In this document: piece after piece, positions 23,252 through 23,315 of the stretch
Layout of the letters: each line of letters begins with the position of its first letter
Position numbering within the stretch: position 1 is the first letter of the stretch
Made by a program: the position numbers and the translations under genes
NCBI RefSeq assembly: GCF_003334405.1
Contig: NZ_QOWM01000029.1
From: Escherichia coli
GTDB taxonomy: Bacteria > Pseudomonadota > Gammaproteobacteria > Enterobacterales > Enterobacteriaceae
Length of the DNA: 27,599 nucleotides
Reading direction: 5' to 3' (one strand)
Notes under the pieces: generated by a model
Databases searched by the model: none
What the model was told of the DNA's origin: nothing
Seen by the model: the letters and a program-made list of their open reading frames with translations, nothing else

Positions 23252-23315
23252 ACAGAATCGACATACATCACAAAGTACTACAATTAAAATACCAGTTACG
23301 ATATGTCGATTCTGT
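23252..23315 (-). promoter_or_regulatory. Intercistronic stem-loop (14-bp perfect inverted repeat) between major-subunit and FaeH-like genes
   Basis: ACAGAATCGACATA (23252-23265) and TATGTCGATTCTGT (23302-23315) are perfect reverse complements separated by 36 bp, in the AT-rich spacer just downstream (in transcription sense) of the major subunit stop. Confidence 0.4.

Follow-up and report, generated by a model that had tools for sequence, protein, structure and literature searches.

A conserved hairpin with a U-rich tail behind the major-subunit gene of an F4/K88-type fimbrial operon: a candidate leaky terminator and mRNA protector

Results

An F4/K88-family operon with a variable major-subunit region

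The stretch of Escherichia coli DNA analysed here (27.6 kb, called the window throughout) is part of an IncF-type plasmid: it encodes the CopA antisense RNA at 14774–14863, and its plasmid backbone is 90–99% identical to that of thousands of Escherichia, Klebsiella and Shigella plasmids. According to the list of open reading frames (ORFs), the right-hand end of the window carries a chaperone-usher operon on the minus strand. Both the gene order (usher, chaperone, faeF, major subunit, faeH, faeI) and the presence of PF02432 subunits are those of the F4 (K88) family. The usher gene is open at the window end and is followed by the chaperone gene (24928–25788), a faeF-like gene (24402–24893), the gene for a FaeG-like major fimbrial subunit (23395–24180), a faeH-like minor-subunit gene (22425–23210) and a faeI-like gene (21630–22421). 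The major subunit, a protein of 261 residues encoded by a hypervariable allele, was assigned from its ORF, its PF02432 (Fimbrial_K88) relatives and the position of the gene in annotated fae-like operons, while the assignment of the faeH-like gene rests on its ORF and on the annotation of faeH in homologues. Outside the major-subunit region, the operon is 88–92% identical to annotated faeD/E/F/H/I genes on plasmids of E. coli, E. albertii and E. marmotae.

All homologues of the FaeG-like subunit contain PF02432. In a search of 5.8 billion protein clusters, 909 clusters matched the subunit at E≤1e-20, and its best relative, from Salmonella Chester, is only 63% identical, a divergence that illustrates the extreme diversification of this antigen. 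At the other end of the operon, about 50 nt downstream of the faeI-like gene and at the position that faeJ occupies in prototype K88, lies a transposase-like gene (20367–21576, plus strand). It consists of two overlapping ORFs of 165 and 275 residues and appears from its sequence to be frameshifted; faeJ may have been lost from this operon by insertion.

A comparison with the nearest operons shows 85–100% identity through faeI and faeH and again past ~24400, with a fall to 35–75% at about 23140–24400. This low-identity stretch spans faeG, the spacers on both sides of it (faeF–faeG and faeG–faeH) and, in faeH, the ~70 nt at the start that correspond to the signal-peptide region. The hypervariable cassette has sharp boundaries, which suggests that it has been exchanged by recombination, and a low-GC major-subunit cassette that recombines has likewise been noted or proposed in the related klf cluster (PMC5560535). 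The faeF–faeG spacer, ahead of the major-subunit gene, contains a hairpin that resembles a terminator and has a T-rich tail (CGGTAATCCTGAAATATAAGGATTGCTG GTTTTAATTT; 24221–24248, minus strand). A similar AATAAGGATTGC...GATTTCAG motif stands ahead of the second major-subunit gene in two of the related operons, L030 (614–2289) and L032 (313–2286), which have two tandem PF02432 genes instead of one.

The inverted repeat forms the base of a long hairpin followed by a U-rich run

The spacer between the faeG-like and faeH-like genes is 184 nt long, with A or T at 131 positions of the sense strand. Within this spacer, ACAGAATCGACATA (23252–23265) and TATGTCGATTCTGT (23302–23315) are complementary at 14 of 14 positions and lie 36 nt apart, exactly the perfect 14-bp inverted repeat that a preliminary description of this DNA had reported. 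It is the longest perfect inverted repeat in the window when the arms are allowed to be up to 60 nt apart; the next-longest (13 bp) is located within the CopA antisense RNA. The arm sequence does not recur elsewhere in the window, even at two mismatches. A palindrome without any function might arise by chance in so AT-rich a spacer, and about 1% of shuffled windows (9 of 1000 composition-preserving block shuffles of the whole window) do hold a perfect 14-bp repeat of this kind. However, none of 20000 shuffles of the spacer itself produced one, and the hairpin is kept, with compensatory changes, in 19 diverged operons (see below), making a chance origin very unlikely. The preliminary description had also placed the repeat immediately downstream of the major-subunit gene. 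This is not the case: it begins 79 nt past the stop codon, behind two smaller hairpins at 23352–23384 and 23321–23342, and ends 41 nt before the faeH-like ATG.

Folding of the minus-strand transcript, a check proposed in the preliminary description, yields three hairpins (H1–H3), with the repeat as the base of the last. H1 (23352–23384, minus strand) has 12 pairs, is worth about −10 kcal/mol and starts 11 nt past the stop codon. H2 (23321–23342, minus strand), recovered by folding and in the consensus structure described below, has 7 pairs in the window copy and an 8-nt loop. H3 (23252–23315, minus strand) comprises the repeat and a self-pairing interior (23266–23301), and is delineated by folding, a covariance model, covariation and strand asymmetry. 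All three hairpins are present in both the minimum free energy (MFE) and the centroid structures when the fold takes in a further 100 nt of coding sequence to each side, and H3 is found in both kinds of structure in contexts of 196 nt and of 361 nt. As sense RNA, H3 is 64 nt long and has 25 pairs, an 8-nt apical loop and a folding energy of −26.5 kcal/mol. The 36 nt between the arms provide 11 of these pairs, so that the unusually long 36-nt loop described earlier does not exist. Folding z-scores range from −5 to −7, and for a 91-nt segment with H3 the value is −5.6, with no shuffle folding as well.

On the mRNA, the 3′ side of H3 is directly abutted by a U-rich tail, UUUGUUUUUAUAUUUUU (23235–23251, minus strand), which is evident from the sequence, tail counts and alignment columns but is absent from the preliminary description. 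Directly after the last H3 pair, UUUGUUUUUA has 8 U in its first 10 positions, compared to 43% U in the spacer. The locus thus has two of the features by which intrinsic terminators are recognised, a stable hairpin on the transcribed strand and, directly behind the stem, a U-tract (about 7–9 nt as a rule). Past the hairpin, the plus strand is not T-rich, and no plus-strand gene reads into the hairpin. As a terminator, H3 is non-canonical: the apical loop has 8 nt, the stem is long and has four interruptions, G-C pairs account for just 5 of the 14 in the basal stem, and the segment matched by the covariance model has 28% G+C. A consensus-based terminator scan did not flag H3, because the scan takes only uninterrupted stems with loops of 3–8 nt; we therefore parsed the MFE structures instead. 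The distance of H3 from the stop codon would fit a terminator as well, since, according to one published study (PMC4824070), terminators that are too near the stop codon are repressed by the ribosome and work better well downstream of it.

A second perfect repeat is located nearby on the minus strand (23222–23234 and 23158–23170). It is 11 bp long, can be extended to 13 pairs, and joins the 5′ UTR of faeH (CUGAAUAAAACAG) to faeH codons ~14–18 (CUGUUUUAUUCGG), thereby enclosing the faeH Shine-Dalgarno sequence and AUG in a loop of ~53 nt. Equivalent long-range stems are predicted in L001, L004, L019 and L023, including distant Salmonella operons, and as modelled, such a stem could damp faeH translation.

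Conservation of the hairpins in related fae-like operons

BLAST searches found recognisable homologues of the spacer (~70–79% identical) in one setting only, the interval that separates faeH from the major-subunit gene in fae-like operons. Their hosts are E. coli, Shigella, E. albertii and Salmonella plasmids as well as a few E. coli chromosomes. Absence of the repeat from closely related operons had been put forward in the preliminary description as grounds for discarding its functional proposal; instead, a homologous hairpin with a U-rich tail is present at the equivalent site in 19 related fae-like operons. Among these are four operons with the nearest major-subunit proteins (57–63% identity), where the hairpin has one or two non-standard pairs.

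To assess conservation quantitatively, we aligned 15 distinct homologous spacers, which are related to one another, derived an RNAalifold consensus, and counted pairs on a list for H1–H3 that was written by hand. RNAalifold recovered H2 and H3 from the 15 spacers. For H1–H3 jointly, 93.9% of cells form standard pairs, as opposed to 30–45% when the partners are slid by 1–3 columns; changes on both sides occur at 11 pairs, and none of 500 column shuffles matches the observed values on any measure. H1 is paired in 96.5% of cells and conserved in most spacers, being absent from L001 and L010, while H2 has both-side changes at 6 of its 12 pairs. Taken alone, H3 is paired in 92.5% of cells and, of 17 pairs counted, has 5 that are invariant, 8 with one-sided changes (mostly A-U to G-U) and 4 with both-side changes, so that the covariation in H3 by itself is modest. 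The U-rich tail is conserved too, with little or no variation in the T-rich alignment columns that follow the stem.

Relative to the consensus, the arms of the window copy show six differences, all of which keep or improve pairing. At two pairs both partners have changed in a compensatory way (C-G to U-A and G-C to A-U), a wobble pair has become Watson-Crick, and a mismatch has been repaired. Of all copies, that of the window is thus the cleanest; elsewhere the hairpin is slightly imperfect. In several homologues, one or two pairs of the outer stem are non-standard, and the MFE structures of L029 and L032 lack the full H3 stem, which indicates that selection on pairing is not absolute. Nevertheless, the three-hairpin module keeps its structure inside a fast-diverging stretch of the operon. 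In L030 and L032, with their tandem major-subunit genes, the conserved H2/H3 module occurs only after the second gene.

The window differs from most homologous spacers in lacking a segment of ~40 nt between the U-run and the faeH ribosome-binding site, corresponding to columns 176–216 of alignment A1 (the 23176–23216 region of the window). In the homologues, this segment contains a weak promoter-like motif (TTGAAT-17-TATGTA), as judged by eye. In the window itself, a promoter scan found no promoter-like site between the hairpin and faeH or elsewhere in the spacer.

The faeG 3′ UTR, with H1 and H2, conserved AU-rich linkers and a terminator with a long U-tail, has the look of an Hfq-type RNA. 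It is conceivable, if quite unlikely, that the UTR gives rise to a small RNA that regulates other genes, or that the hairpin works as a regulated switch, through RNase III or attenuation, for the ratio of major to minor subunits. Neither idea has specific support, and no conserved antiterminator was found: a search for alternative pairing of the H3 arms with H2, or with the H1 3′ arm plus linker, gave no consistent signal, as most z-scores lay within about 2 SD, the exceptions being L009 and L017. Translation-coupled or antiterminator pairing was rejected for the same lack of a consistent signal across homologues.

Strand asymmetry points to selection on the mRNA

The preliminary description had offered a protein or sRNA binding site as a fallback. 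In most copies, the H3 region folds with −27 to −35 kcal/mol in the sense direction and −11 to −23 kcal/mol in the antisense direction, and the sense fold is the better one in 14 of 15 spacers. Read on the other strand, the many A-U to G-U substitutions become C-A mismatches, and only sense RNA tolerates them. Together, the fold bias and the tolerance of G-U pairs point to the mRNA as the molecule under selection, rather than an antisense RNA or a symmetric site in the DNA. We found nothing in favour of the binding-site fallback; its premise of a long loop is wrong, and the strand asymmetry argues against a symmetric DNA site.

These data also bear on the idea that the repeat acts as DNA, whether as a palindromic operator, as a site of recombination at the cassette boundary or as what is left of a small mobile element. 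The arms in the window are perfectly symmetric, the repeat lies inside a hypervariable cassette with flanks that are 85–100% identical, and the major-subunit gene of the klf cluster has itself been proposed to recombine (PMC5560535), all of which would fit. However, the homologues are asymmetric, folding well as sense and poorly as antisense, and half-sites 36 nt apart are not operator-like. In addition, the drop in identity starts ~70 nt inside faeH and not at the repeat. With regard to dispersed repeats or mobile elements of the REP, ERIC or MITE kind, the covariance model of the subgroup (R1) identified one H3 copy per homologous locus and no extra copies in the window or the sampled loci, BLAST of E. 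coli and plasmid collections returned the spacer in fae-like operons only, and no direct repeats are visible at the flanks of the element. A role at the DNA level is therefore very unlikely. Operator, mobile-element and chance-palindrome readings are, in sum, disfavoured by the asymmetry, the single copy and the conservation.

Rfam 15 gave no match in the spacer at gathering thresholds, and a permissive scan of the spacer returned chance-level matches only (E above 2, far below threshold). When the conserved 3′ arm TTGTGAYGYATGTYGRTTCTG was searched for in one genome per species, the single match was in a Bacilli metagenome-assembled genome (MAG), which we attribute to chance as it has neither the 5′ arm nor a fae context. 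The exact arms of the window had no match in a metagenome scan.

Hairpins behind the major-subunit gene across the F4 family

We also collected F4-family operons by similarity to faeH only, which makes the sampling independent of the spacer sequence. The sample includes prototype K88, F41, Klf of pESI, S. Dublin, S. London and several unnamed operons. Outside the subgroup, the spacers are unrelated in sequence and have a different hairpin at the equivalent position; the covariance model R1 detected no homologue in the K88, F41, Klf, Dublin and other F4-family spacers. Yet one or more strong hairpins stand behind the major-subunit gene in every one of the 29 sampled spacers, and in 16 of the 29 a hairpin is followed by at least 6 U in 10 nt, even where the sequence is unrelated. 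Some of these hairpins are compact canonical terminators (L027 and L018), whereas others are long and window-like with arms ~40 nt apart (K88 L012, Dublin L019 and L026).

The K88 prototype (L012, from a plasmid of a pig ETEC strain) provides a useful comparison. Its hairpin shares the position between the major-subunit gene and faeH and, like that of the window, is long (22 pairs, −27.5 kcal/mol); about 40 nt of self-pairing sequence separate its arms, and its tail is T-rich. The K88 5′ arm ACAGACCAGCATC resembles that of L001 (ACAGAACCAGCATG), but its 3′ arm is out of register in the MAFFT alignment, and the K88 hairpins were left out of the pair counts. On present sequence comparisons, the hairpins of K88, F41, Klf and Dublin and those of the window subgroup may be analogous solutions.

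The length of these stems could point to RNase III, which would cleave a long, nearly continuous helix and so uncouple faeG mRNA from faeH–faeI mRNA. Stems longer than a terminator needs are indeed found in the homologous subgroup, where they keep to 22–31 pairs, and in some unrelated spacers (L012, L019 and L026), where they have 20–33 pairs. On the other hand, the H3 stem has its four interruptions, and L018, L022, L023, L025 and L027 have short hairpins of 13–16 pairs at the equivalent site, so that stem length is not a family-wide requirement. We consider a dedicated RNase III site unlikely.

Discussion

Taken together, we propose that H3 acts as a leaky intrinsic terminator and at the same time shields the major-subunit mRNA at its 3′ end, and we would put the probability of this reading, which combines sequence, structure modelling and analogy, at roughly 60%. 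The element would be a cis-acting RNA in the untranslated spacer between the faeG-like and faeH-like/faeI-like genes, made by minus-strand transcription. The hairpin would form as RNA polymerase reaches the U-run, causing a fraction of the polymerases to terminate. Termination would probably be incomplete given the AU-rich base of the stem, and it would also need to be partial because faeH has just 41 nt upstream of it, without a promoter-like site. With so short a distance between hairpin and faeH ATG, read-through transcripts would be the sole source of faeH and faeI mRNA. Transcripts that end at the hairpin, whether terminated there or cleaved afterwards within the AU-rich tail, would carry a long 3′ stem that, together with H1 and H2, should block 3′-to-5′ exonucleases. 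The expected net effect is a major-subunit mRNA that is more abundant and longer-lived than the minor-subunit mRNA.

Such arrangements have precedents in other fimbrial operons. In K99 (fan), stem-loops flanking fanC reportedly modulate downstream transcription. The pap operon, which the preliminary description had invoked, is a documented case, since partial termination between papA and papH lowers the level of downstream transcripts (PMC6524683) and the 3′ end of papA mRNA is protected by the terminator structure (PMC5927463). The papA–papH terminator resembles H3 in being a hairpin directly 3′ of the major-subunit gene in a chaperone-usher operon, but no sequence relationship was found, and none is expected. 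Unlike it, H3 is AU-rich and interrupted over its 64 nt and has two hairpins ahead of it. The suggestion of stabilisation and partial termination by a stem-loop has gained comparative evidence in its favour, while termination, read-through and stabilisation as such stay at the level of inference.

A somewhat different scenario, possible but rather doubtful, is that of a pure processing and stabilising element at which polymerase does not stop: RNase E would cut the AU-rich tail or linkers, and the hairpins would block 3′ exonucleases, as in malE–malF. The malEFG protective hairpins are dispersed REP repeats. H3 shares with the malE–malF type that it is a stable intercistronic hairpin 3′ of a gene needed in excess (PMC5927463), and differs from it in being single-copy and in having a U-tract. 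Three stable hairpins are stacked between the faeG-like and faeH-like genes, as expected for a protective structure, with an AU-rich stretch free of structure behind them; differential decay involving 3′ protective hairpins is a common trait of E. coli operons (PMC5927463), and the AU-rich stem base is weak for a terminator. Against pure processing stands the conserved U-run that abuts the stem, given that a U-tract is usually missing from the protective hairpins mapped across the E. coli genome (PMC5927463). Processing and termination could possibly act together, and the roles in termination and protection cannot be separated in silico.

We found no description of this hairpin by full-text search, in which the early K88 papers were incompletely covered. 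H3 is a family-conserved example of a classical kind of element. If our reading of H3 as a leaky, protective terminator is correct, it would explain how an excess of shaft subunit over minor subunits is obtained from one promoter in an F4/K88-type operon, by a device that is retained even within a fast-evolving, recombining major-subunit cassette. The hairpin and its U-tail would mark the 3′ boundary of the major-subunit transcript, and this boundary would be useful in annotating the many fae-like operons without a name that plasmids of E. coli, Shigella and Salmonella carry, and in the design of expression constructs.
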